64,000 nt of DNA from Promethearchaeota archaeon. Its GTDB lineage: Archaea; Asgardarchaeota; Lokiarchaeia; Sigyniarchaeales; SOKP01. Both the position numbers and the translations under genes were made by a program. This document shows, piece after piece, positions 11,076 to 61,498 of this stretch. Below the pieces are notes generated by a model. It was not told where the DNA came from. It made no database searches and worked only from the letters and a program-made list of their open reading frames with translations. The stretch covers positions 21,977 through 85,976 of the forward strand of contig JBHLOC010000019.1 in the NCBI GenBank assembly GCA_048940925.1. The letters are read 5' to 3'. The stretch's first letter is position 1; each line of letters opens with the position of its first letter.

Positions 11076-13331
11076 TTATTTTTCGATATCGAATCTTACT
11101 TCACATCTATCTGAGTCACAGAATTTCTCACCTATGGCTCTATCTCTTGTCTCATCTAAGTTAAATGAAGTAATTCGGTGTATCATTTCTTCATATTGCT
11201 CTAAAGTAATTTCTTCATATGGAGCTTGCCTATAACCATGTTCTTTTATTGGCAGAAAACTTACGCTTTTTAGTTTATCTTCACAAAATTGCAGAACATG
11301 TTCAATTTGATTTGCTTCTTCTTCCTTGAATGTAATTGTAATACTAACTTGATTGTCGCTCCACCTCGCTTGATAATCAATAGCATTAGCTGCTTGTTCC
11401 CAAATAGTGACTCCATTTTTAGAACGATCGAAATATTTCTCATGAATTGGGAACTCTGCAACTACAGTATTAGGCGAATATAAATCATCTTCAATTTTAT
11501 AGCCAGCATTTTTTATTGGTTGAATTAAATCAGAATTTTTTGAGATTCTAATTCGTCGTATATAATATTCTGAATGTGGATAATGAATTCCAGGTGGAAC
11601 CCCCGGTAATAGGCTAACAGTTCCACTAGGTTTAACTGTGGTTATTTTTATAGATTTAGGAATACATAACCAATCAGAGTAGGTTTCATCTAATTCCCTT
11701 AAATAGTTGTATCCTTTATCGCACCATTCTAACATCGTTCTTCTCCCATGTTTTACAAATGCTTCAATAATACCAGTTTGTGAAATACCCATCCTTCGAT
11801 TTTTTAACATAACAGCGTTAGTTTCTTTCCAATGGGTATTGACTAATGTAACTGACTTTGCATATAAGTAAGCATATTTTAAAGTTTCCTGAAATTCTTC
11901 ATAAGACTCATGTCTTGAAGGAAAGGTTTCGACGAGACAACAAAGTTCAAAACTCTCAAGGGTTTGTTCTCCACATGGATTAACTCCTGCTGCTTTTTTA
12001 TCTTTATAATTTGGGAGGTCTCCCATCCTTCCATAATCTCTTGCATTTTCTAACCAAAAAACTCCAGGTTCTCCATTTACTGCAATTTGATTTGCTATGA
12101 AAGAATAATCTAGACCTTTAACTGCAAAAACAGAATTATTGCTTGCCCATCGATGAGAATATAATGCTTCCTCATCTTGCTTAGATGTAACAAAATTTAA
12201 ATCTGTTGGATCACCCAAGGCGATTTCAGCACTTCTCCGAACATTGCCCGCAACTACACATTTACCAATGTGATTCATAATGTCTAAAATATCAATAGAT
12301 GTTATTTTTTGTCCTATTCTTGTTTCTAAGATTTTTTGTATATCTTCTAGCATTTTTTTTAATGGTGCTGGACCAGATGCTATTCCTCCAAATCCTCTAA
12401 TGGGTTTACCCGCAGGCCTAATCTCTGAAAAATCGTAATTTGGAACTTGTTTACCTAGAAAATAAGCTTCTAAAATCAATTTTAAAGCCTCAACCCAACC
12501 TTCCCTACTATCAGGAATTCGGAAATCAAAATGACCTTCTTTTGGTCTCTTAATTGTAATTTTACCAGCCCCTTTTGTATCGAAACCTACCCCTACTCCA
12601 AGCATTAATGCATCCATTACAAATTCAAATGCTTTTGAGTGTTTTAGGTTGATATCTTCAGTAGAGGCGAAACCACAGTTGTTTAAAGACATAGAACCGT
12701 GACGAGCAATGAATTCTGTTCCCATCATCCATAATCCTCTTCCTGGTGGTAAAAATTTGAAGTTCCAAATTTTCTTGAACATTATTTGAGCAGATTTTTG
12801 AGCTTTTTGATCACTCCAAGGAAGACTTAACTTCATACAATGTTCTTTTTGAATGGAATAACAACCTTCCACCACACGACGAACAGTTTCCCAAAATTCT
12901 TCTTTACGATTTTCACCCTCAATAATTCTGGCATAAGTTCGCTTATATGTGATATAGCCAAGAGGCCCCCACATAGGATGCTTTCCTTTATAATTTTTTA
13001 TAAATTCTTCATCAAGTTTGAATCCGATACTTTCTAAATTAATAGCTCTTGCAAATAAGTTTCTATATTTATTCAAACCCCGTTGAGTAAGTTCTACACA
13101 TACTAATTCCCTTATATAATTTGTAGTAATCTCGTCCATACCAAGGCCAATTATTGTTCGAATAACATCTTCTGCCACTTTCTCAGCAATATGGATATCA
13201 AGACCTGTTTCTTTGTTTAATATTTTAGCTATACTATTCTCATCAAATTTTTTCTTCTCACCCTTGGAATTAATGACATATTTTGGGTACAAATCTATTA
13301 ACGAGAATGAATTATCGGTCATGATTTCCAT
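11076..13331 (-). CDS. nrdJ: Class II (adenosylcobalamin-dependent) ribonucleotide reductase, monomeric RTPR type, with N-terminal ATP cone
   Basis: KRTYAR, FLPPGRGLW, SLNNC, GVGVGF, GNVRRSAE, NPCGEQ.L...ELCCL, TVKPSGTVS, C-terminal CDSDRC; N-terminal VINSKGEKKKFDENSI ATP-cone pattern. Confidence 0.93.
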   Translation of the reverse strand: MEIMTDNSFSLIDLYPKYVINSKGEKKKFDENSIAKILNKETGLDIHIAEKVAEDVIRTIIGLGMDEITTNYIRELVCVELTQRGLNKYRNLFARAINLESIGFKLDEEFIKNYKGKHPMWGPLGYITYKRTYARIIEGENRKEEFWETVRRVVEGCYSIQKEHCMKLSLPWSDQKAQKSAQIMFKKIWNFKFLPPGRGLWMMGTEFIARHGSMSLNNCGFASTEDINLKHSKAFEFVMDALMLGVGVGFDTKGAGKITIKRPKEGHFDFRIPDSREGWVEALKLILEAYFLGKQVPNYDFSEIRPAGKPIRGFGGIASGPAPLKKMLEDIQKILETRIGQKITSIDILDIMNHIGKCVVAGNVRRSAEIALGDPTDLNFVTSKQDEEALYSHRWASNNSVFAVKGLDYSFIANQIAVNGEPGVFWLENARDYGRMGDLPNYKDKKAAGVNPCGEQTLESFELCCLVETFPSRHESYEEFQETLKYAYLYAKSVTLVNTHWKETNAVMLKNRRMGISQTGIIEAFVKHGRRTMLEWCDKGYNYLRELDETYSDWLCIPKSIKITTVKPSGTVSLLPGVPPGIHYPHSEYYIRRIRISKNSDLIQPIKNAGYKIEDDLYSPNTVVAEFPIHEKYFDRSKNGVTIWEQAANAIDYQARWSDNQVSITITFKEEEANQIEHVLQFCEDKLKSVSFLPIKEHGYRQAPYEEITLEQYEEMIHRITSFNLDETRDRAIGEKFCDSDRCEVRFDIEK

Positions 13332-24742: not shown

Positions 24743-26623
24743 ATGAATGAGGATATAAAAGAAACTGAACTGTTAAATTTTAATGAAAATAACAATGAAA
24801 TTTTAAAAGAAGAAATTAGTCTACAATTTCATTTATATATTTTAATTTTTGCTATAATTTATTATATTTCATGGGTAATACCTGGATTTGTATTTTGGTT
24901 ATACTTTATGATACCTTTCCGTATTTACTTCTTAGAAAATCTAAATTTTGTATCAATTTTTACTAATTTTAATTCACTAATAACACTTTTAATCATGCCA
25001 ATTATCCTTATTGGTTGTTATTTACTTCATCTATTTTTAATCGGTTTAACTACTCGAATTATTTGGAAAATTACTGAAAAAATTTCGCCATCAAAATCAG
25101 GAGTAATCCCTAGAAATATAAGAAGTAGAGCAGCAAATTATTATCACATCAGGAGTTTTATGATAAAGTATGGTAAAAACACTTTTACAAAAGGTATCTT
25201 TCCTTGGCTCTCTAATTGGTTTTTTAATTTGGTAGGATCAAACAAAATCGGTAAAGGTACAACTTTAGAAGAATCTGTTGGTAATGACAAATTTATTAAT
25301 ATTGGAGAAAACTGTTATATAGGAGTAAATTCTACTTTAGCCAGTCATTTAATCCAAGGAATTTTTGGAAATATTTCTTATTTCAAAATAAATGTAGGAA
25401 ATAACGTGACTACAGCTGTAATGAACCAAATCGGTCCAGGAACAGAACTTCATGATAATTCCTTTTTATTACCGTTAGCTTCTACCAGCAAACATAGCAT
25501 AGCGAAAGGAGGTAAAAACTACTATTTTGGAATTCCTTTTAGAAAAATCTTCAGAAAAAAAATTATAAAGTATCTGGATATTACTCCAAAAGATTTAGAA
25601 ATAAATGAAAACATTGAAGGTTATAAAGACAAGGCACTTTTAAAAAAGATAAAGAAGAAAAATGATGTAAAGAAAAAAGTTGATTCTGCTCCTGAAAAAA
25701 GTTTGAGAGGTAATGAATCTAAAGTAGAAAAAGTAAATTATTCTGATTTATCAGAAGAAGATTTAACAATTGATTTTGCTACAAGCTCTGCAATAAGTAG
25801 GATTAACATAAAGTTTTTAGCAGTCTATTTACCAATTTTATGGCTAGCAGGGCTACTTGCTACTATAATTTGGTATTGGTATTCAGAAGATGTAATGAGT
25901 TCAATGAAATTTCAATGGGCATTTTTTCTTTTCTTTCCATTTATATTATTTGGTTTGATCTATATCTTTATTATTGGATGTCTTCTTTTTAGTAAATTAT
26001 TTTTAATGTTAATTAATCTTATTCATAAACCGAAAGAAGGAGTTTTTAAAGCAGAAATAGGAAATACTGATTTTGAATTTTGGATGTTAAGAACTGAGTT
26101 AAAGAAAATTGGGTTATGGTTTATGAGAAATTCTCCCTTACCTTGGACTGATGTAGTGACCTTAAAATTAATGGGCGTTAACATGGATTTCTCAAGCCAT
26201 TTACCAGACGCATGGTGTGATGCCGAATTCATCAAATTTGGACGCAAGAATCTAATTGGTCAGGGAGCTTTAATAATGTCGAGTATGGTAATTGGCCGAT
26301 ATTTAATAATAAAGCAGGTATTTTTAGATGATTATGTAATGGTTGGAGGTCACACAACTATTTCTCCAGGTACATTAATAGGTAAAGAATCTGTGATAGG
26401 TGCACTTAGTTCTACAACTCTTAATCAAGTTTTAGATCCTAAGTGGGTTTATTTTGGATTTCCAGCAATTAAGCTTAAAGAGAACAAATATGCTGAGGAG
26501 AGGAGAGATATTATATTCAAACGTGATGTAGATGAAGCGAAAAAATTTGAAACAATTCACGCAGTTAATATTGATGAAGATAAAAAAAGATTAATTAAAA
26601 TAGAAAATGAGGAGGAAAAATAA
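24743..26623 (+). CDS. Fused A+B membrane LbH acyltransferase-like protein (cluster 3)
   Basis: Collinear with 22387..24183 (ASHLIQG, LEINENIEGYKDK, IDFATSSAI). Confidence 0.82.
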   Translation: MNEDIKETELLNFNENNNEILKEEISLQFHLYILIFAIIYYISWVIPGFVFWLYFMIPFRIYFLENLNFVSIFTNFNSLITLLIMPIILIGCYLLHLFLIGLTTRIIWKITEKISPSKSGVIPRNIRSRAANYYHIRSFMIKYGKNTFTKGIFPWLSNWFFNLVGSNKIGKGTTLEESVGNDKFINIGENCYIGVNSTLASHLIQGIFGNISYFKINVGNNVTTAVMNQIGPGTELHDNSFLLPLASTSKHSIAKGGKNYYFGIPFRKIFRKKIIKYLDITPKDLEINENIEGYKDKALLKKIKKKNDVKKKVDSAPEKSLRGNESKVEKVNYSDLSEEDLTIDFATSSAISRINIKFLAVYLPILWLAGLLATIIWYWYSEDVMSSMKFQWAFFLFFPFILFGLIYIFIIGCLLFSKLFLMLINLIHKPKEGVFKAEIGNTDFEFWMLRTELKKIGLWFMRNSPLPWTDVVTLKLMGVNMDFSSHLPDAWCDAEFIKFGRKNLIGQGALIMSSMVIGRYLIIKQVFLDDYVMVGGHTTISPGTLIGKESVIGALSSTTLNQVLDPKWVYFGFPAIKLKENKYAEERRDIIFKRDVDEAKKFETIHAVNIDEDKKRLIKIENEEEK

Positions 26624-27602: not shown

Positions 27603-28316
27603 TCAATTTTCTTTTAAGATAAAATAAATTCTTCTATTATTCTTTCCTTTATTTACTGTCTTAATAAGTTCTATTTTACCGATTTCTTTAAGGTGGTTAA
27701 TGTGAGTACCCCCATCAACTTGTTCATCGATATCTCCAATTCTCACAATACGGAATTCTTTAATATTTTCAGGTAATCCTATTGCTAAGCGAGCTAATTC
27801 AGGTTTCCCTAACACTTCTTCTCTTGACATATAATCTATTGTAATTGGTAAATCTTGTTCAATAATATTGTTTGCTTCATCTATAAAAGCACTTAATTTT
27901 TCAGGAGAATAATCCTGCATTGAGAAATCCATTCTAGTTTTATCAAGGTCTATTTGATTCCCAGTAATTTTTGCATTGGCTCTTCTATAAAGAATATTTG
28001 AAATAAGATGGGAAGCTGTATGATATCGCATGTATGTATATCTTCTTTCCCAATCAAGTTCACAAGATACTTTATCTCCTTCTTTTAATCCAGGTTTATC
28101 AACTTCATGGCTAATATCCCCTGAGAATTTTCCAACATATACAACTTTGTATTTTTCATTACCCTTGAAAAGATACCCCTCATCCCATGGTTGACCTCCT
28201 CCTTTCGGATAAAAAGCAGTGTTATCAAGTGTGATATATTTTCCATCTTTAACACTCTTAACTTTAGCATCAAATTTTTTAAGATATGAATCATCCATAT
28301 ATAATGCTCTTACCAT
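27603..28316 (-). CDS. alaXM: Alanyl-tRNA editing protein AlaX-M
   Basis: TAFYPKGGGQP.D.G, MRYHTASH, VDGGTH, NKGKNNRR; 237 aa. Confidence 0.9.
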   Translation of the reverse strand: MVRALYMDDSYLKKFDAKVKSVKDGKYITLDNTAFYPKGGGQPWDEGYLFKGNEKYKVVYVGKFSGDISHEVDKPGLKEGDKVSCELDWERRYTYMRYHTASHLISNILYRRANAKITGNQIDLDKTRMDFSMQDYSPEKLSAFIDEANNIIEQDLPITIDYMSREEVLGKPELARLAIGLPENIKEFRIVRIGDIDEQVDGGTHINHLKEIGKIELIKTVNKGKNNRRIYFILKEN

Positions 28317-37626: not shown

Positions 37627-38177
37627 TTATACATTTTGTTTAATCGTAAATTCCCAAGCACACCAATAATTATCAGGGTGAGGATCTGGAGGACAGGCTA
37701 TACATTTTGTTTTAATTCTTGGGTCAATCGTTTTGGCAAAAAGGCCATACTCTATTATACCCACTTGCTTACAAGGAAAGTCTAGGAGTCCCCTTCGTTT
37801 TCTAGCAGATTGTACTCGGCAGTTATTCATTCTAAAAACACATTTTTTCTCTGTAACTTCAATGGTCTCTTGAATATTTATATTAGCATATATTCTATAT
37901 TTTAATGCTTTAATTAAAGCGGGAATTCCTCCATTTTCAGGAATATTAAATCGTTGCATAATTCTTTTAGCTTCTATTACAGTGAATCTCTTCCATTGTT
38001 TTACATCTAATTCAATAGCTTTATCAAGGCCATATTCTGATTCAACAACCTGAAACCAGGTTATAGGTTTAAAGGACTTCTTTAAAACTTTCCATCTATG
38101 GCTAGCCAGTTTTTAGAGATATCTTCAATATAATTCAATAATTCTTCCTTTGATAAATTTAACAAATCTTCTCTCAT
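37627..38177 (-). CDS. DUF6125-like protein, 173 aa after removal of a 29-nt intron (exon 1 38177-38090, exon 2 38060-37627)
   Basis: Exon 1 MREDLLNLSKEELLNYIEDISKNWLAIDG; joined codon ACC (T); exon 2 WFQVVESEYGLDKAIELD...CRVQSARKRRGLLDFPCKQVG...CPPDPHPDNYWCAWEF; the NWLAxDGxWF family motif forms only after removal. Confidence 0.85.
38061..38089 (-). other. Candidate bulge-helix-bulge (BHB) intron in a protein-coding gene
   Basis: AGTTTTAAAGAAGTCCTTTAAACCTATAA; central helix AUGG/CUAU, 3-nt bulges AAA and AAC, 8-bp intron stem; BHB cut sites coincide with frame-restoring boundaries. Confidence 0.8.
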
Positions 38178-38180
38178 AAT

Positions 38181-39068
38181 TCAATTCGAATGTTTTATTT
38201 TTTTATGAAAATTTTTCATACTTTTTGTATTTAATCTCTGGTCATATGAAGAAAATCTTTTACGTTTTCTTTGAAGACTTTCAGAGTAATTATCAAGCAA
38301 CTCATTAATGAGATTTCCACCTATATACATAATATAAGCACACCCCTTGTATATCTTATTTTTAACTTTAAAGAGAGATTCAACTTTTTTTGGATTATAT
38401 TGTATTTTGAATTTGTGTTTTAATTGTTTTAGGAACAATAAGCTAGCTGTGGTTATTCTAGTTGTATTAGCTGTTCCATCACCATCAAAAAATCCTAAAA
38501 GGAATGCTAAATATAGTGTTTTTAAATGAAATCTTGGCAATTTTATATGATAAGTTTTCCTTTTTCCTACGATCATTCCATGCCTGATTAAATGTTTGCA
38601 AAATCCATTTGAATTGATACTAATTCTCCAAAAATTACGTTCCTTCCTTTTTCTAATATATTTATTTTCAAAACCAATGATTTTTGATAATTTTAATAAA
38701 AGAATTTTATCTTTTAATGAAAAACCAATTTCAAAAGTTAATCGGTTATTAGATTTATAACTAATTGATCCATCAGCAAAAATAAGTCCTAAGAAATATG
38801 CTTTCTGCTTTGTATCAATATTTTCAAAATAATTAATCTTAATATTTGGATGATAAAAATAGATTTTATGATTTCTATCTCTAATTAAATGATTATCCTC
38901 ATACAAATTAAACAATTTAAGAACTTCTTGCGTTAAACATCGGTTTAATCTCAAATGTTGTTTCATTTTTGCTAAATCTTTCTTTGAAAAATAGTAATTA
39001 GGATTCTCTCTGCATATAGACATTTTATATTTAAAATAAGATTTATTTCGACTTACTAAAATTCCCAA
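38181..39068 (-). mobile_element. Free-standing two-motif LAGLIDADG homing endonuclease-like gene
   Basis: AYFLGLIFADGSI and AFLLGFFDGDGT motifs, very basic; frame stays open upstream to about 39182 with no ATG, so the start is uncertain. Confidence 0.85.
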
Positions 39069-39366
39069 TTTGTTGTAAGAATATCGATTTCCATGTAATT
39101 TATATCCCTTTTCTCGATAATAATTACCTATTATACACCTTAGAGTTTCAATAAAGGATAAAGTTTGATTTATTTTTCCCCTCTATTTTAGCTTAAAAAT
39201 AGTAATTGAATCAATTTTAATAAATACTATGAGAGACTTGAATTACAAATATAGACTGAAATTTCTTGAAAAGAGGAGTAGATACTTCTATTTGCATATT
39301 TTCTTTACATAAAATTAAATATCCGAGTTAAATTTAAATTAAAAGGAAAAATTTTAACTAGAGTTT

Positions 39367-39498
39367 GTGAAAATTGGAGCTAAACGTGTTATAGATGCAG
39401 GGTTCGTAATAGGAATAGTCTCCTCTGTGATCGGAGGAGTAGCTGTAGTCTGTGCTGTTTCATATTACTATATGGAGAAACAGAAAACACTTGTGTGA
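39367..39498 (+). pseudogene. Remnant C-terminal membrane anchor of a lost surface protein, or a small TM peptide
   Basis: VKIGAKRVIDAGFVIGIVSSVIGGVAVVCAVSYYYMEKQKTLV*; TM plus charged tail; in-frame stop at 39355. Confidence 0.4.
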
Positions 39499-39621
39499 AA
39501 TTTAAAATAATTATAAATCCTTCTTTTTAAATTCTTACAAAAGCAAAATTAAAAAGATTTTATACTAATTATCATTTATATCTAATTCTAAAAGAAAAAG
39601 AAGTTATCATAGTGGAATAAA

Positions 39622-41550
39622 ATGGGAAAAACTCTTACTGAAAAAATATTAGAAAAACACTTGATTGAAGGTACAATAGAAAAAGGGACAGATATAGCGA
39701 TCAAGATTGACCAAACTCTCACACAAGACGCTACAGGGACAATGACTTACCTACAATTTGAAGCAATAGGAATACCGAGAGTACAGACAGAATTATCTGT
39801 AAGTTATGTTGATCATAATACTTTACAAACTGATTTTAAGAATCCTGATGATCATAGGTATCTACAAAGTATTGCTGCTAAATATGGACTTTATTTTTCA
39901 CGTCCAGGCAATGGAATATGCCATCAACTACACTTAGAACGCTTTGCAAGACCTGGAAAAACATTACTTGGTTCAGATAGCCATACTCCAACGGGTGGTG
40001 GTGTAGGGATGATAGCAATAGGAGCAGGAGGTCTTGATGTTGCAGCTGCGATGGCGGGAGAAACATTTAGACTAAAAATGCCTAAAGTAGTAAATGTATA
40101 TTTGACAGGAAAATTACCGGACTTCGTATCCGCAAAAGATATTATATTAGAAGTTTTGAGGAGAATAGGTGTTAAAGGTGCTGTAAACAAAGTCTTGGAA
40201 TATACAGGTCCAGGAATAAAAACTCTTACTGTTCCAGAAAGGGGAACAATTACAAATATGGGAACTGAAACTGGAGCAACAACCTCAATCTTTCCCTCAG
40301 ATAATATTACAAAAGAGTTTTTAGAAGCTCAAGAGAGAGGAGATCAATGGATTCTCTTAGAGCCAGATGATGATGCTATATATGATGAAAAAATTGAGAT
40401 TAATTTAAATGAATTGGAACCCCTTATTGCACTTCCACATAGTCCAGGAAATGTAAAAACTATCGAAGAAGTTAAGGGATTACAGGTAGATCAAGTCTGT
40501 ATTGGAAGTTGTACAAATTCTTCTTTAAGAGACTTGAAAATAGTAGCAAATATTTTGAAAGGAAAAACTATTAATGAACATACCGTTCTAACTGTCTCAC
40601 CAGGCTCTCGTCAGGTAGTAACTCATATGGTTAAATCTGGGGAAATGGCATTTTTAGTCGAAGCAGGAGCCAGAATTCTTGAAAATGCTTGTGGTCCATG
40701 CATAGGTATGGGACTTGCTCCTAAAAGTGACGCAATATCATTACGAACTTTTAATAGGAACTTTCTCGGAAGAACAGGAACGAAAAGTGCCCAAGCATAC
40801 CTCGTTAGTCCTGAAACTGCTGCAGTATCTGCTATTGAAGGGAAAATTACAGATCCAAGAAGCTTTGGAAAATTACCTCAAATTGAAATGCCTAAAAAAT
40901 TCATAGTAAATGATAATATGATTATACCACCATTATCTCCAGAAAAAGCAAATTTGATTACAATTGTTAGAGGTCCAAATATTAAACCTTTACCTGAATT
41001 TAAACCTTTACCCGATAAATTGGAAGGAGAAGTACTTCTTAAGGTTGAAGATGACATAACCACAGATCATATAATGCCAGCAGGAGCAAAAATTCTTCCT
41101 TTAAGATCTAATATCCCTGAGATTAGCAAATATGTTTTTAATGTTATTGATGATCGTTTCCATGACAGATCTTTGGAAAAGGGGGGTGGTTTTATAGTTG
41201 GAGGAGAGAATTATGGTCAAGGTTCCAGTAGAGAACATGCAGCAATAGCACCTAAATATTTGGGAATTAAAGCAGTTATAGTTAAATCATTCGCACGTAT
41301 TCATTTAGCAAATCTTATCAACTTTGGAATTGTACCTCTAACTTTTGCTAACAAAAACGATTATGATAAAATCACGCAGGGAGATCGATTTGAAATTAAT
41401 CTTAATACCTTGGAATCTGGTAAAGTAATATTAAAGATTTTAAATAAAAATTTAGAAATCCCTTTGACTCATTCTCTAAGTTCACAGGAAATTGAAGAAT
41501 TAAAAGAAGGTGGAAAACTTACTTTAATTAAACAAAAACACAAAAAATAG
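39622..41550 (+). CDS. acn: Aconitate hydratase (compact about 640-aa type), copy 1
   Basis: TQDATG, DHN, GICHQ, GSDSHT, IGSCTN, CGPCIG, FNRNF.GR, TTDHI.PAG, NYGQGSSREHAA, SFARIH. Confidence 0.93.
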   Translation: MGKTLTEKILEKHLIEGTIEKGTDIAIKIDQTLTQDATGTMTYLQFEAIGIPRVQTELSVSYVDHNTLQTDFKNPDDHRYLQSIAAKYGLYFSRPGNGICHQLHLERFARPGKTLLGSDSHTPTGGGVGMIAIGAGGLDVAAAMAGETFRLKMPKVVNVYLTGKLPDFVSAKDIILEVLRRIGVKGAVNKVLEYTGPGIKTLTVPERGTITNMGTETGATTSIFPSDNITKEFLEAQERGDQWILLEPDDDAIYDEKIEINLNELEPLIALPHSPGNVKTIEEVKGLQVDQVCIGSCTNSSLRDLKIVANILKGKTINEHTVLTVSPGSRQVVTHMVKSGEMAFLVEAGARILENACGPCIGMGLAPKSDAISLRTFNRNFLGRTGTKSAQAYLVSPETAAVSAIEGKITDPRSFGKLPQIEMPKKFIVNDNMIIPPLSPEKANLITIVRGPNIKPLPEFKPLPDKLEGEVLLKVEDDITTDHIMPAGAKILPLRSNIPEISKYVFNVIDDRFHDRSLEKGGGFIVGGENYGQGSSREHAAIAPKYLGIKAVIVKSFARIHLANLINFGIVPLTFANKNDYDKITQGDRFEINLNTLESGKVILKILNKNLEIPLTHSLSSQEIEELKEGGKLTLIKQKHKK

Positions 41551-53936: not shown

Positions 53937-55097
53937 TTAAAGAAGGTTGTGTTCTATACGAAAGTAGTAATTATGAAATAGTGAAGAGATAAAATATGAT
54001 TTAATCAATCTAAAATCTTTCTTATATCTGAAGAGATCGTAAACATAATAAGTTCTTTTTAACAACCATGCTATAATTCCTCGAATAACATAATGATTCA
54101 ATAAATGAGCTACTCCATAATTTTTTCCTAAAGATATAAACATGAACTTAATAGGCTTTAATTGTAATGGTTTTAATTTTTTTCCTTTTATTTTCCTGAC
54201 TAGTAATTTAGAGAGATAGTCTGCTTGAATCTTAGCCACCTGGGCTAACATTGGTGCATTCCCATTTAGATAAGGAAAATTAGCAGCATCACCTATTGAA
54301 TATACATCATCAATTCCTTCGACTTGACAAAATTGGTTTACCCTGTAAGCTCTTTTAAATTGAAGATCTGAGTTGATTAGTACTGGTCTAGATCCAATAC
54401 AAATAACAATAAACTCAGAAGGATACTCTGCATTCTCCGTATAAATGATATTCTTTTCTATTTTTAACACTTTTTCATTGTATAGAATATTAATATTTAA
54501 TTTTTTCAGCTGTTTATCAATTATAGAGTGAAATTTAGGGATGCTTGGAAAAAACTGTTTTTCTGCTACAAACAAGTCAATAAAAATTTCTTTTTTTAAT
54601 GTTTTAGCTAAAGAAGCTATTTCTGAAGCAAGTTCAATCCCAACAGCTCCTCCACCAATAACGGAAATCAAAGGTTGATATCTTCCTAAAGCTATTTTCA
54701 GATGACTATTAATCCGAATTGCATCAAATATAGTTTTCATAGTTGGATAGTTCTCTGATCCTTCAATCACTTTTAAAGGAGACGCACCGGGAGAAATAAT
54801 TAAATAATCATATTTATAAAATTGAGAGTTTTCTAGTTCAATTTCTTTTTTGTTAAAATAAATCTTTATTACACTTGATCTTATAAACCAAGCTCTTTTT
54901 AGCTCTTTTTTAATATCAAAAAAAGGAACTTCCTTTGGGATTTGTCCTACGCTCGCTTCATGTAATAAAGGATTATAAAGGAAATGGTGAGAAGGGTTAA
55001 TCAATAAGATATCAAAATTCTTGAATTTTTCAATCTTTTTAGCTAGTCTAAACCCAGCGAATCCCGCTCCAATAATAATTACATTTAACCGTTTCAT
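53937..55097 (-). CDS. ndh: Type II NADH:quinone oxidoreductase-like flavoprotein
   Basis: GAGFAG, YNPLLHE, GGGAVGIELA.E, SIGDAA, AQVA..QA, ISLG, G..AW. Confidence 0.8.
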   Translation of the reverse strand: MKRLNVIIIGAGFAGFRLAKKIEKFKNFDILLINPSHHFLYNPLLHEASVGQIPKEVPFFDIKKELKRAWFIRSSVIKIYFNKKEIELENSQFYKYDYLIISPGASPLKVIEGSENYPTMKTIFDAIRINSHLKIALGRYQPLISVIGGGAVGIELASEIASLAKTLKKEIFIDLFVAEKQFFPSIPKFHSIIDKQLKKLNINILYNEKVLKIEKNIIYTENAEYPSEFIVICIGSRPVLINSDLQFKRAYRVNQFCQVEGIDDVYSIGDAANFPYLNGNAPMLAQVAKIQADYLSKLLVRKIKGKKLKPLQLKPIKFMFISLGKNYGVAHLLNHYVIRGIIAWLLKRTYYVYDLFRYKKDFRLIKSYFISSLFHNYYFRIEHNLL

Positions 55098-59509: not shown

Positions 59510-61498
59510 TTATTCTATAACTTTTAAAATATCACCATTTTCTTCTAACACTCTCGCAAACTCATAAACTTTGCTAGGATAAAAAGGATGGTGGAATTCT
59601 AATGTTAACATTGCACAAATTTCTTTAAGATTTAATGATGACCCTATAAAATTTAACATTTCTTGGACATCCCCTCCCCAAATATCTGGAGGTTCTGGAA
59701 CCTTGAACTTTTCATAATCTTCTGATAATAATATTGGAGTATAATATTTCAAATTCCTTCTCCCTACAAAATTTAAAACCCATTTTTGGTGAATATGATC
59801 TGGTTCTTTAATAAGATTAATGTCAATAGATGCCTGTTTACATAACTTACTCCAATAAGATAATAAGTCTCTTTTTAATTCTTCTAAATCCTTAACTCTT
59901 TCAAAAAATAATTTTTCAATTATTTGTGATGACGAATTAAGTTGCTTTACTGAATCTAAAATAGATTTTTCATAAGTGATAAAGGAATTTATTAAAGATT
60001 TCCCCATCAATGTAATCTCATTTTTTGACATTGAAGATGATGTATTTTCTTGAATGAGTTGGTTATAAAGAGCGAGTATTATTTCTTTTAATTTACCTAT
60101 CCGTTGGTAAAAATTAGCTTCTATAATAGGCCATATTGAAATTAATGTATCCTTGTTTTGTATTGAAAATAAATAACTAGTACAAAGAGCAATAGCAATA
60201 ATACGTTTTAGTTCTGTTGAATCACATTTTTCTATTGTGTCAAGGGAGCTATGCCAAAAAGGATCTTCATGTCCAATCATAATACCAGGAATACATAAAG
60301 GTTGTGTTACAAATACAACATGATCGCTTCCACCTGAATATGGAACTATTCGATATCGCATTTGCATTTGTGTGCCATTTATTGCTACACCCTGTGGGTG
60401 ATCTGCAATTATTCTCGTAAAATATTGAATTATATCATTTAAGATTGAAGGTCTTGAATAAGGTCCTAGACAAATATTACATGGAGTTCCGACATTTTTA
60501 GGATGTTCTCCAATCATGTCTAAATTTATGTTAAAAAGTGCATTTTTCACAATATATTCGTGTTCCTTAACCCAAGGAAAAGTTCCATGAAATTCAGGAA
60601 CCCAAAGAAATCTTATTGTTCGCAATGGGTGTTGCAATATGTTTTGCTTTATTAATGCTGTAAGTGAACGTGCTAATTCTAATAATCCTGCAGATCCACT
60701 TGCATTATCGTTTACTCCCGCTGCAGGGTGACAAATATGTGCTGTTAAAATAATCTCTTCATGAGGTTTTTCTATCCCTCTAATAGTAGCAGAAATTACT
60801 TCCAATTCCCCATCATAAATCTCAGCATCAATTTTAGCATATAATTTAACAGGTCCCTTTTTTAACAAATCTTTCAAGTATAATCCTTGTTCAAAGGGAA
60901 TACTAAACCCAAAAGATGTTTTTTCTAAATCTTCAGCTATAGCAGGAAATCTATTATATATAATCATACCTTTATAACCCGCTGCTCGCTCAGGACCGGG
61001 ATATACAATAACCCCTAATGCGCCCTTTTCTGCATATAATGGAGGAATAATGATTCGTGGAGCTTCCATTAAAACTATTTTCCCTTCTATATCTAATCCA
61101 TTGAAGTCTTCTTCTTTAACACCTTTCCCAACATCTATTAATTCTGCTGTTACATCACAACTCTTTGATCTTCCTACTATGCACATAGGAATATCCTGAA
61201 ATCGACATAAGATTTCTTTTTTTGGTTCGATCAGGCTTAATTCCCCTGATTTAATCTCCCAACTTTGAGTTACTATCCAATCCCAAGTTTTAGTTTTTCC
61301 GTCTGCAGGATATTTATAGACTTTTATTTCGTCCAAACCAAATGTTTCCAGTTCATTTACTACTCGTTCTATAATTTCATGATAATCGCTAGAACCTACA
61401 ACTCTATTATATTGCGAAATTTTTGCTACCCAATCTAAAGCGTATTTTCCACTAACTTCATTTAATACATCATCTATTAATTTAGAGATATCTTTCAT
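59510..61498 (-). CDS. M28-family peptidase with PA domain (DUF4910-like)
   Basis: TAHICHP..GVNDNASGS, WVPEFHGT, NLDMIG, GSDH, WHSSLD. Confidence 0.85.
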   Translation of the reverse strand: MKDISKLIDDVLNEVSGKYALDWVAKISQYNRVVGSSDYHEIIERVVNELETFGLDEIKVYKYPADGKTKTWDWIVTQSWEIKSGELSLIEPKKEILCRFQDIPMCIVGRSKSCDVTAELIDVGKGVKEEDFNGLDIEGKIVLMEAPRIIIPPLYAEKGALGVIVYPGPERAAGYKGMIIYNRFPAIAEDLEKTSFGFSIPFEQGLYLKDLLKKGPVKLYAKIDAEIYDGELEVISATIRGIEKPHEEIILTAHICHPAAGVNDNASGSAGLLELARSLTALIKQNILQHPLRTIRFLWVPEFHGTFPWVKEHEYIVKNALFNINLDMIGEHPKNVGTPCNICLGPYSRPSILNDIIQYFTRIIADHPQGVAINGTQMQMRYRIVPYSGGSDHVVFVTQPLCIPGIMIGHEDPFWHSSLDTIEKCDSTELKRIIAIALCTSYLFSIQNKDTLISIWPIIEANFYQRIGKLKEIILALYNQLIQENTSSSMSKNEITLMGKSLINSFITYEKSILDSVKQLNSSSQIIEKLFFERVKDLEELKRDLLSYWSKLCKQASIDINLIKEPDHIHQKWVLNFVGRRNLKYYTPILLSEDYEKFKVPEPPDIWGGDVQEMLNFIGSSLNLKEICAMLTLEFHHPFYPSKVYEFARVLEENGDILKVIE

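Follow-up and report, generated by a model that had tools for sequence, protein, structure and literature searches.

A predicted bulge-helix-bulge mini-intron in a DUF6125 coding sequence of an Asgard archaeon and its pairing with a free-standing LAGLIDADG endonuclease gene

A minus-strand gene of the DUF6125 family in the window (the whole 64,000-nucleotide stretch of DNA that was analysed) is broken by 29 extra nucleotides, and the question raised by this locus is whether the gene is dead, is read by an unusual translational route, or has the 29 nt removed from its message. Read unspliced, the frame opened by the ATG at 38177 continues to ...NWLAIDGKF-stop and ends after 31 aa. A second frame, open from within the insert to a stop at 37627-37629, encodes the remaining DUF6125 protein. 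Removal of positions 38061-38089 joins the two frames as GGA A|CC TGG, giving NWLAIDG-T-WFQ and a product of 173 aa with the predicted junction peptide NWLAIDGTWFQVVESEYGLDK. The Pfam matches of the two exons end at profile position 24 and restart at position 26, so that only the split Thr codon is absent and the 29 nt are the sole addition. The boundaries of the insert can slide by up to 2 nt with the product unchanged, owing to AA repeats. An earlier reading made from the letters alone (hereafter, the sequence-only reading) had described both the 29-nt break and the two products of 31 and 173 aa; the sequence and the continuity of the Pfam matches bear out the break, and both products were reproduced. 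The DUF6125 protein had no match in PDB or NCBIfam, and literature searches on DUF6125 found nothing. The source genome (4.8 Mb, 90 contigs, 29.6% G+C) is labeled G000 below; other G numbers denote genomes of relatives, and L numbers denote metagenome contigs or loci. The features of the locus are collected in Table 1.

Table 1. Positions in the window of the interrupted DUF6125 gene, the predicted bulge-helix-bulge (BHB) elements and the neighboring genes.
Feature	Position	Strand	Description
Exon 2, DUF6125 gene	37627..38060	-	Thr codon bases 2 and 3, then 143 codons and stop; Pfam profile 26-164, E 2e-70
Outer exon-exon helix, 3'-exon strand (CU, then GGUU)	38054..38059	-	Pairs with AG 38096-38097 and AGCC 38100-38103
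3' bulge AAC	38060..38062	-	Predicted cut 38061/38060
Predicted BHB-type mini-intron, 29 nt	38061..38089	-	Homologous 28-29 nt inserts at the same codon elsewhere
Central helix 3' strand CUAU, in intron	38063..38066	-	Pairs with AUGG
Intron hairpin (helix h')	38067..38088	-	GUUUUAAAG, loop AAGUC, CUUUAAAC
5' bulge AAA	38089..38091	-	Predicted cut 38090/38089; 3-nt bulge recovered independently by RNAalifold
Exon 1, DUF6125 gene	38090..38177	-	29 codons and base 1 of the split Thr codon; Pfam profile 2-24
Central helix 5' strand AUGG, exon 1	38092..38095	-	Pairs with CUAU 38063-38066
Free-standing two-motif LAGLIDADG homing endonuclease gene	38181..39068	-	Pfam LAGLIDADG_3 and LAGLIDADG_1
Rest of the ~1.3-kb insert around the endonuclease gene	39069..39621	.	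Between the DUF6125 gene and the aconitase gene
Aconitase gene, divergent	39622-41550	+	Bounds the ~1.3-kb insert

Orthologs were sought in 61 relatives and then in all 135 genomes of the same family, about 95 of which carried a DUF6125 ortholog. Most orthologs were uninterrupted and read NWLAIDG-T-WFQ; about 89 of the 95 had no intron and an identical protein sequence around the site. An insert of 28 or 29 nt at the same codon was found in six species genomes: G000 and G010 within one genus, and G115, G118, G133, and G144 within another. A pattern scan of public metagenomes added 14 further contigs with an insert at this codon. In all 20 intron-bearing alleles the spliced reading frame was intact, with no other lesion in any of them. 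The presence of the insert in about 20 independent assemblies excludes an assembly artefact, and the 29 nt are real DNA.

Selection on the coding sequence was estimated from pairs of alleles with and without the insert. The ratio dN/dS was 0.10 for G115 and G133, a sister pair in which both members carry the insert (dS 0.70), and 0.08 for G000 compared with its intronless sister G108, while pairs of intronless alleles gave values of 0.05-0.14. The exons flanking the intron are under normal purifying selection, and relaxed selection on exon 2, which the sequence-only reading had named as the expected mark of a pseudogene, was not seen. No start codon lies in the exon-2 frame inside the insert, and translation from the first in-frame ATG of exon 2 would drop ~33 well-conserved residues. 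Evidently the full-length DUF6125 protein is produced, which requires that the insert be either removed or skipped.

In the source genome the sequence around the insert can be drawn as two 3-nt bulges on opposite strands with a 4-bp helix (AUGG/CUAU) between them, and an 8-bp intron stem that has a single bulged U and is capped by a 5-nt loop. All of the pairings listed by the sequence-only reading are present, namely the central helix, the AAA and AAC bulges, the intron stem and the exon pairs. The archaeal splicing endonuclease EndA is described, in the parts of PMC2738675 drawn on here, as cutting between the second and third bases of a bulge. Applied to both bulges, this rule gives the predicted cuts of Table 1, which are the boundaries that restore the frame, as had been claimed; the rule is valid for the 28-nt variants too.

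Covariation was assessed in an alignment of 17 distinct alleles; for 11 of them the retrieval pattern had predetermined certain columns, which leaves the unconstrained columns as the only informative ones. Standard pairs filled 91.5% of cells, compared with 24-56% when the 3' partners were slid by 1-3 columns. Changes on both sides of a pair occurred in 18 cells against 4.8 expected, and none of 500 shuffles reached 18. Within the intron hairpin 92.6% of cells were paired, and four of the eight pairs had both-sided changes. The closing pair of the intron stem, which is stacked on the central helix, was G-C in seven alleles, A-U in five and U-A in five, and was never unpaired; another intron-stem pair was A-U in 13 alleles, G-C in three and G-U in one. 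The intron hairpin is maintained through compensatory changes. Both the intronless orthologs and the same-site introns with covarying stems, for which the sequence-only reading had proposed that related genomes be aligned, were found.

Two pairs of the central helix were invariant across the 17 alleles, one was GU or GC, and one was A-U in 12. The first central-helix pair was mismatched in five alleles and the exon pair beside the 3' bulge was broken in 3-6, which makes the motif of these alleles relaxed, not canonical. The 3' bulge read AAC in all 17, of which only the six genome alleles are independent, AAC having been required by the retrieval pattern for the other 11. In the outer exon helix (2+4 bp) 89% of cells were paired; this helix is constrained by coding and so carries little independent weight.

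RNAalifold, with no structure supplied, recovered the intron stem together with three core base pairs of the central helix and the 5' bulge of 3 nt. When the 69-76 nt were folded in isolation, the computed energy minimum (-16 kcal/mol) was a structure other than the BHB, which came to about -4 to -7 kcal/mol; the competing exon-2 hairpin is confined to the source genome. As folding of single sequences does not return the BHB, covariation was relied on instead. Using a BHB descriptor (2+4+4 bp, two 3-nt bulges), a scan of 2 x 4.82 Mb of this AT-rich genome at 37 spacer lengths gave 39,611 raw hits, or about 1.1e-4 of the (position, length) combinations. Matches this rare make a chance fit at the single place and length that restore the frame unlikely.

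A pseudogene, silenced by a 29-nt insertion or transposon footprint and with its exons decaying, would suit both the early stop of the unspliced frame and the genuinely broken ortholog with internal stops that occurs in the same genus (G028), but this reading has next to no chance of being right and was rejected on the strength of selection and the number of intact alleles, given 20 insert-bearing alleles free of further lesions, the low dN/dS of intron-bearing lineages (including the sister pair in which both carry the insert) and the compensatory evolution within the insert.

The machinery that splicing would call for is encoded in the source genome. Two EndA paralogs were detected (111 and 84 bits against a TIGR00324 cut-off of 59.6), in the regions C58:74241-74465 and C18:73532-73780 of G000. 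Only one of them has the Tyr/His/Lys catalytic pattern; in alignments with fused EndAs, the two match the catalytic and the structural half (alpha and beta-like). RtcB is encoded as well (E 9e-167). Asgard EndA is reported to be an (alpha-beta)2 enzyme whose L1 loop gives it broad substrate specificity (PMC5829648), and this breadth fits the existence of relaxed BHB alleles. An (alpha-beta)2 EndA would cut the DUF6125 pre-mRNA at both bulges and RtcB would join the exons, as for the tRNA introns of the host, while an unspliced message would yield the 31-aa peptide only. ARAGORN placed introns in 22 of 34 tRNA predictions of the source genome, in agreement with published work in which Asgard tRNA genes are intron-rich, with repeated gains (PMC11291895; bioRxiv 10.64898/2026.10.13.758758). 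These tRNA introns share the motif, and presumably the enzymes, with the DUF6125 insert, whereas the two reports concern tRNA genes only.

The sequence-only reading had also suggested scanning the genome for other frameshifted genes with BHB geometry, and at least five were found. The scan recovered the DUF6125 intron together with inserts of ~30 nt and the same geometry in conserved motifs of other genes, which split the genes for EF-2, Elp3, an AMP-phosphorylase-like protein, methylmalonyl-CoA mutase (MM-CoA mutase), and an AIR-synthase-related protein. The count is of genes confirmed by motif or Pfam continuity. Per-exon Pfam matches were consistent with a split in 5/5 of these sibling genes, and direct profile continuity was seen in MM-CoA mutase (profile 2-54 and 58-512). 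A filter that combined structure with ORF restoration returned about 1,570 hits that restore an ORF, whichever bulge size (1, 2, 3, or 4 nt) was set, with a modest excess of such hits at 29-32 nt for 3-nt bulges. The background of this filter is high, and for this reason no genome-wide total of coding-sequence introns is given.

Recoding during translation would leave the RNA unspliced, with ribosomes either bypassing the 29 nt in the style of phage T4 gene 60 or shifting frame. A stop codon near the gap and a hairpin within it are features of gene-60-type bypassing, and the DUF6125 gene has a stop soon after the Gly codon as well as a hairpin in the gap. The take-off and landing codons, in contrast, are unmatched: in G000 they are GGA and, 29 nt on, AUA; G115 and G133 also differ at both codon positions, and the other alleles provided no match. 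Bypassing does not call for covariation of a closing pair, nor for its stacking on an exon-intron helix that carries two 3-nt bulges. The many such inserts in the same genome and the use of the same motif by tRNA genes also speak against recoding. With no matching codons, and with the covarying BHB geometry left unexplained, translational bypass was rejected; recoding of any kind is exceedingly improbable.

Overall, the identification of the 29 nt as an archaeal BHB intron within the DUF6125 coding sequence is supported. The sequence-only reading had proposed a non-spliceosomal mRNA intron that pipelines would miscall as a frameshift, and sequence evidence of several kinds favors this proposal: recurrence at the same codon, intact exons, purifying selection, covariation, frame-restoring cuts, the presence of EndA and RtcB, and sibling introns. 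For the locus as a whole, the best joint explanation, which we hold to be probable, is a BHB intron removed by EndA and RtcB combined with collaborative homing by the adjacent LAGLIDADG endonuclease.

Watanabe in 2002 and Yoshinari in 2006 are said to have reported on the pre-mRNA intron of cbf5 in Crenarchaeota. Among the literature searched, crenarchaeal cbf5 is the sole documented archaeal protein-coding gene with a tRNA-type intron. In the parts of Yokobori 2009 (PMC2738675) drawn on here, the cbf5 intron is patchy, with gain and loss, has predicted cuts between the second and third bulge bases, and is too short to encode an endonuclease; those parts report no endonuclease partner. As far as these parts describe it, the cbf5 intron is like that of DUF6125 in being a short, ORF-less BHB or relaxed-BHB element in a coding sequence and in its dependence, predicted in the case of DUF6125, on a hetero-oligomeric, broad-specificity EndA. 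On the same footing, the DUF6125 intron is unlike it in being one of several in its genome and in its link to a free-standing endonuclease, and its splicing is predicted from sequence whereas that of cbf5 was demonstrated by cDNA. The host gene and lineage also differ (DUF6125 in Promethearchaeia, as opposed to cbf5 in Desulfurococcales/Sulfolobales). The mechanism class would be shared with cbf5 and with archaeal tRNA and rRNA introns, but the DUF6125 intron does not belong to the cbf5 intron lineage.

The literature search for BHB introns in Asgard protein-coding genes found no paper, in line with the statement of the sequence-only reading that none was known in this gene family or lineage. 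Relative to the literature searched, the new elements are the gene, the lineage, the occurrence of several introns per genome, and the pairing with a free-standing endonuclease. The DUF6125 locus would extend the phenomenon known from cbf5 to another gene in Loki-type Asgard archaea, with population-scale support from alleles, covariation and selection. Because gene callers will record genes of this kind as frameshifted or truncated, annotated Asgard proteomes would contain systematic errors.

The endonuclease gene ends 3 nt before the DUF6125 ATG in G000, and 51 nt before it in L146 and L157. The interval between the DUF6125 and aconitase genes, which holds the ~1.3-kb insert in G000, measures ~150 nt in the sister genome G018, whose allele is intronless, and ~225 nt in G010. 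A remnant of exon 1 was looked for in the inserted DNA and none was found. Orthologs of the endonuclease gene lie directly upstream of intron-bearing DUF6125 alleles on three metagenome contigs (L146, L152, and L157). These orthologs are 68-71% identical and intact, retain both motifs and have a dN/dS of 0.18-0.24. Altogether, the endonuclease gene was present at 4/20 intron-bearing loci (G000 and the three contigs) and absent at 16/20. It was found beside none of 79 intronless loci, most of them with about 1.5 kb of upstream flank, and beside none of 27 intronless loci from a search of relatives' genomes.

A gene tree of 73 spliced DUF6125 coding sequences revealed that intron-bearing alleles are scattered, requiring at least 10 changes, with at least five forced by well-supported branches alone. 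The endonuclease label required three changes on this tree, and the three endonuclease-linked lineages occupied three different clades. Exon 1 of the endonuclease-linked alleles was 89-93% identical across clades, while their exon 2 sequences had a mutual identity of about 70% vs 84-98% to local relatives. Informative sites changed parent at spliced positions 90-99 in G000, 81-110 in L146, and 102-110 in L157; the intron site is at spliced position 88/89, and Fisher p values for the parent switch ranged from 3e-4 to 1e-8. In an AU test, monophyly of the three endonuclease-linked alleles, a group defined once the data were known, was rejected for exon 2 (p 2e-72); for exon 1 it was not (p 0.29). 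A single base separates the introns of L146 and L157, and the introns of their nearest exon-2 relatives are quite unlike them. Exon 1 and the intron being shared and exon 2 not, the endonuclease gene, exon 1 and the intron appear to have moved as a cassette into three unrelated DUF6125 alleles.

In each of the three recipients the foreign sequence stops 2-22 nt beyond the intron site. Tract ends near the intron site are the expected signature of a break at or near the insertion site in an intronless allele, and their position hints at such a break. The recombination breakpoints also fall where the gene is most conserved, and because crossovers would be expected there anyway, we can only infer where the endonuclease cuts. 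Under collaborative homing, the endonuclease would cut alleles that lack the intron, at its insertion site or close by, with a presumed target in intronless DUF6125 DNA near GATGGNACNTGGTT. The intron would split this target site, so that the carrier would be protected with its protein undamaged, and repair of the broken allele would copy in both the endonuclease gene and the intron. Orphan introns would be left wherever the endonuclease gene was subsequently lost, which would explain the patchy intron distribution.

Collaborative homing by F-CphI and the psbA intron was reportedly described by Zeng, Bonocora and Shub in 2009. In this system, following the parts of PMC6083498 drawn on here, the group I intron in psbA of cyanophage S-PM2 blocks self-cleavage and the free-standing endonuclease F-CphI mobilises the intron. 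T4 mobE with I-TevIII is another collaborative homing case (PMC2790892). The DUF6125 locus resembles F-CphI/psbA in having the endonuclease gene outside the intron and adjoining the intron-bearing gene, in exclusive co-occurrence of the two, and in a co-conversion mosaic. It is unlike F-CphI/psbA in that a 29-nt BHB intron, predicted to be spliced by proteins, sits on an archaeal chromosome, where the other system has a group I ribozyme in a phage; its endonuclease, in comparison with F-CphI, belongs to the LAGLIDADG family and has a cleavage specificity that is predicted only.

LAGLIDADG endonucleases are also encoded by archaeal rRNA BHB introns, e.g., I-DmoI and I-PorI. Such rRNA introns with endonucleases are mentioned in the parts of PMC2738675 drawn on here. 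The DUF6125 locus is like them in pairing an archaeal BHB intron with a LAGLIDADG homing endonuclease. It differs in the placement of the ORF, which for I-DmoI and I-PorI lies inside a long rRNA-gene intron and here lies upstream of the gene, with a minimal intron in the coding sequence.

In HAC1/XBP1 splicing the nuclease is IRE1, the process is stress-regulated, and RtcB is the ligase in metazoa. By analogy, the sequence-only reading had raised the idea of a switch in which conditional splicing would control production of the DUF6125 protein. The two systems would be alike in protein-only cutting and ligation of an mRNA and in an intron whose removal alters the reading frame, and they differ in the nuclease, here predicted to be EndA and not IRE1. 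What speaks for a switch is the architecture only, in that the unspliced mRNA would give a 31-aa peptide. The ~89 of 95 orthologs that do without the intron, with the same protein sequence around the site, speak against it, as does an intron distribution that tracks the mobile cassette and not lineage or habitat. The exon-1 peptide, moreover, has no conservation independent of the full-length protein. The analogy gained no support from these comparisons, and a regulatory switch is very unlikely.

The reading that survives best beside collaborative homing accepts a real BHB intron and has the endonuclease target some other nearby site, so that the intron would hitch-hike with the cassette, or have been in place beforehand, and would give no immunity. 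It would sit well with the absence of the endonuclease gene from 16/20 intron-bearing loci, with breakpoints located where the gene is most conserved and crossovers would naturally occur, and with three other LAGLIDADG paralogs inspected in the source genome, none of which is followed by an intron-bearing gene. Set against this, the intron is present at all four endonuclease-linked loci, and the endonuclease gene is at no intronless locus. In three independent recipients the tract stops about 20 nt or less from the intron site, and the near-identical introns of L146 and L157 are unlike those of the nearest exon-2 alleles. We consider hitch-hiking plausible in principle, though unlikely at this locus, and retain collaborative homing with EndA/RtcB splicing as the preferred explanation.

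A broader proposal is that free-standing homing endonucleases generally plant ORF-less BHB micro-introns in conserved coding motifs of Asgard archaea, the intron being an immunity device and the orphans being left after endonuclease decay. We advance this tentatively, as a possibility that falls somewhat short of being probable. If it is true, the closest prokaryotic relatives of eukaryotes would routinely gain mRNA introns via a selfish mechanism acting at the DNA level, and ordinary as well as essential Asgard genes would need tRNA-splicing enzymes for their expression. Through its link to a mobile LAGLIDADG gene, the DUF6125 intron suggests a concrete, testable way for very small introns without an ORF to enter protein-coding genes and spread among them, which is relevant to the possible origin of intron-rich genes before, or in the absence of, a spliceosome. 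A scan of 29 LAGLIDADG homolog loci in relatives yielded one plausible mini-intron, at L188.

Thirty- to 31-nt inserts with bulge-helix-bulge (BHB) geometry split five further genes of G000, the genome from which the window derives, and each insert lay inside a conserved motif. At all five loci (5/5), the Pfam domains flanking the insert were compatible with a single gene. Two more 30-nt candidates were identified in G000 on the basis of the motif alone; their removal restored HWDRE/W and WDIAGQ/PQF, respectively.

Features outside and inside the window, by contig or locus
Feature	Location	Coordinates
BHB-type insert, EF-2	G000 C32 (L161)	27895-27924
BHB-type insert, Elp3	G000 C40 (L162)	183124-183154
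BHB-type insert, AMP-phosphorylase-like	G000 C64 (L164)	13177-13206
BHB-type insert, methylmalonyl-CoA mutase	G000 C71 (L165)	54629-54659
BHB-type insert, AIR-synthase-related	G000 C30 (L160)	66095-66124
Candidate 30-nt insert, GH38-like gene (HWDRE/W)	G000 C43 (L163)	76068-76097
Candidate 30-nt insert, Rab-like GTPase (WDIAGQ/PQF)	G000 C78 (L166)	59767-59796
30-nt insert, related genome	L188 (from G095 C4)	1000-1029
LAGLIDADG paralog	G000 C57	75739-76566
LAGLIDADG paralog	G000 C17	6182-6997
LAGLIDADG paralog	G000 C26	35470-36249
Small ORF (+)	window	39367-39498
DUF6125 ortholog	G028 C53 (L041)	25400-26505
Duplicated DUF6125 fragment	L094 (from MAG CSMAG_2237)	1973-2098

A whole-genome ARAGORN search of G000 found just 34 tRNA genes, 22 of which contained introns, some of these at non-canonical positions. 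This tRNA set is clearly incomplete, suggesting that multi-intron or split tRNA genes were missed by the program.

The insert in the related genome G095 had a perfect 9-bp stem, a GAUG/CAUC helix and two 3-nt bulges, and a LAGLIDADG homolog was found within ~0.5 kb of it; together these may represent another endonuclease/mini-intron pair. G000 itself encoded three additional LAGLIDADG paralogs (28–40% identity), those on C57 and C17 being near-identical to each other across the first 150 residues. None of the three (0/3) was directly followed by a same-strand gene. Within the DNA inserted along with the window's endonuclease gene (39069-39621), no remnant of a displaced DUF6125 exon 1 was found; the small ORF in this segment encoded a hydrophobic product of 43 aa.

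DUF6125 is a family common to more than one domain of life. Metagenome-assembled genomes (MAGs) labelled Anaerolineae, Deltaproteobacteria, Calditrichia and Spirochaetota, among others, carried DUF6125 proteins with 46–62% identity to the archaeal one (L105-L145), and all of these genes were without interruption except one broken paralog (L142). The ortholog in the relative G028 matched only across residues 57-169, contained internal stops and was located near the end of its contig. This copy has probably undergone genuine decay and makes a useful contrast with the intron-bearing DUF6125 alleles. In the MAG CSMAG_2237, the intact DUF6125 gene was followed immediately downstream by a second copy of a 42-residue fragment (residues 46-87), which lay in a different frame.
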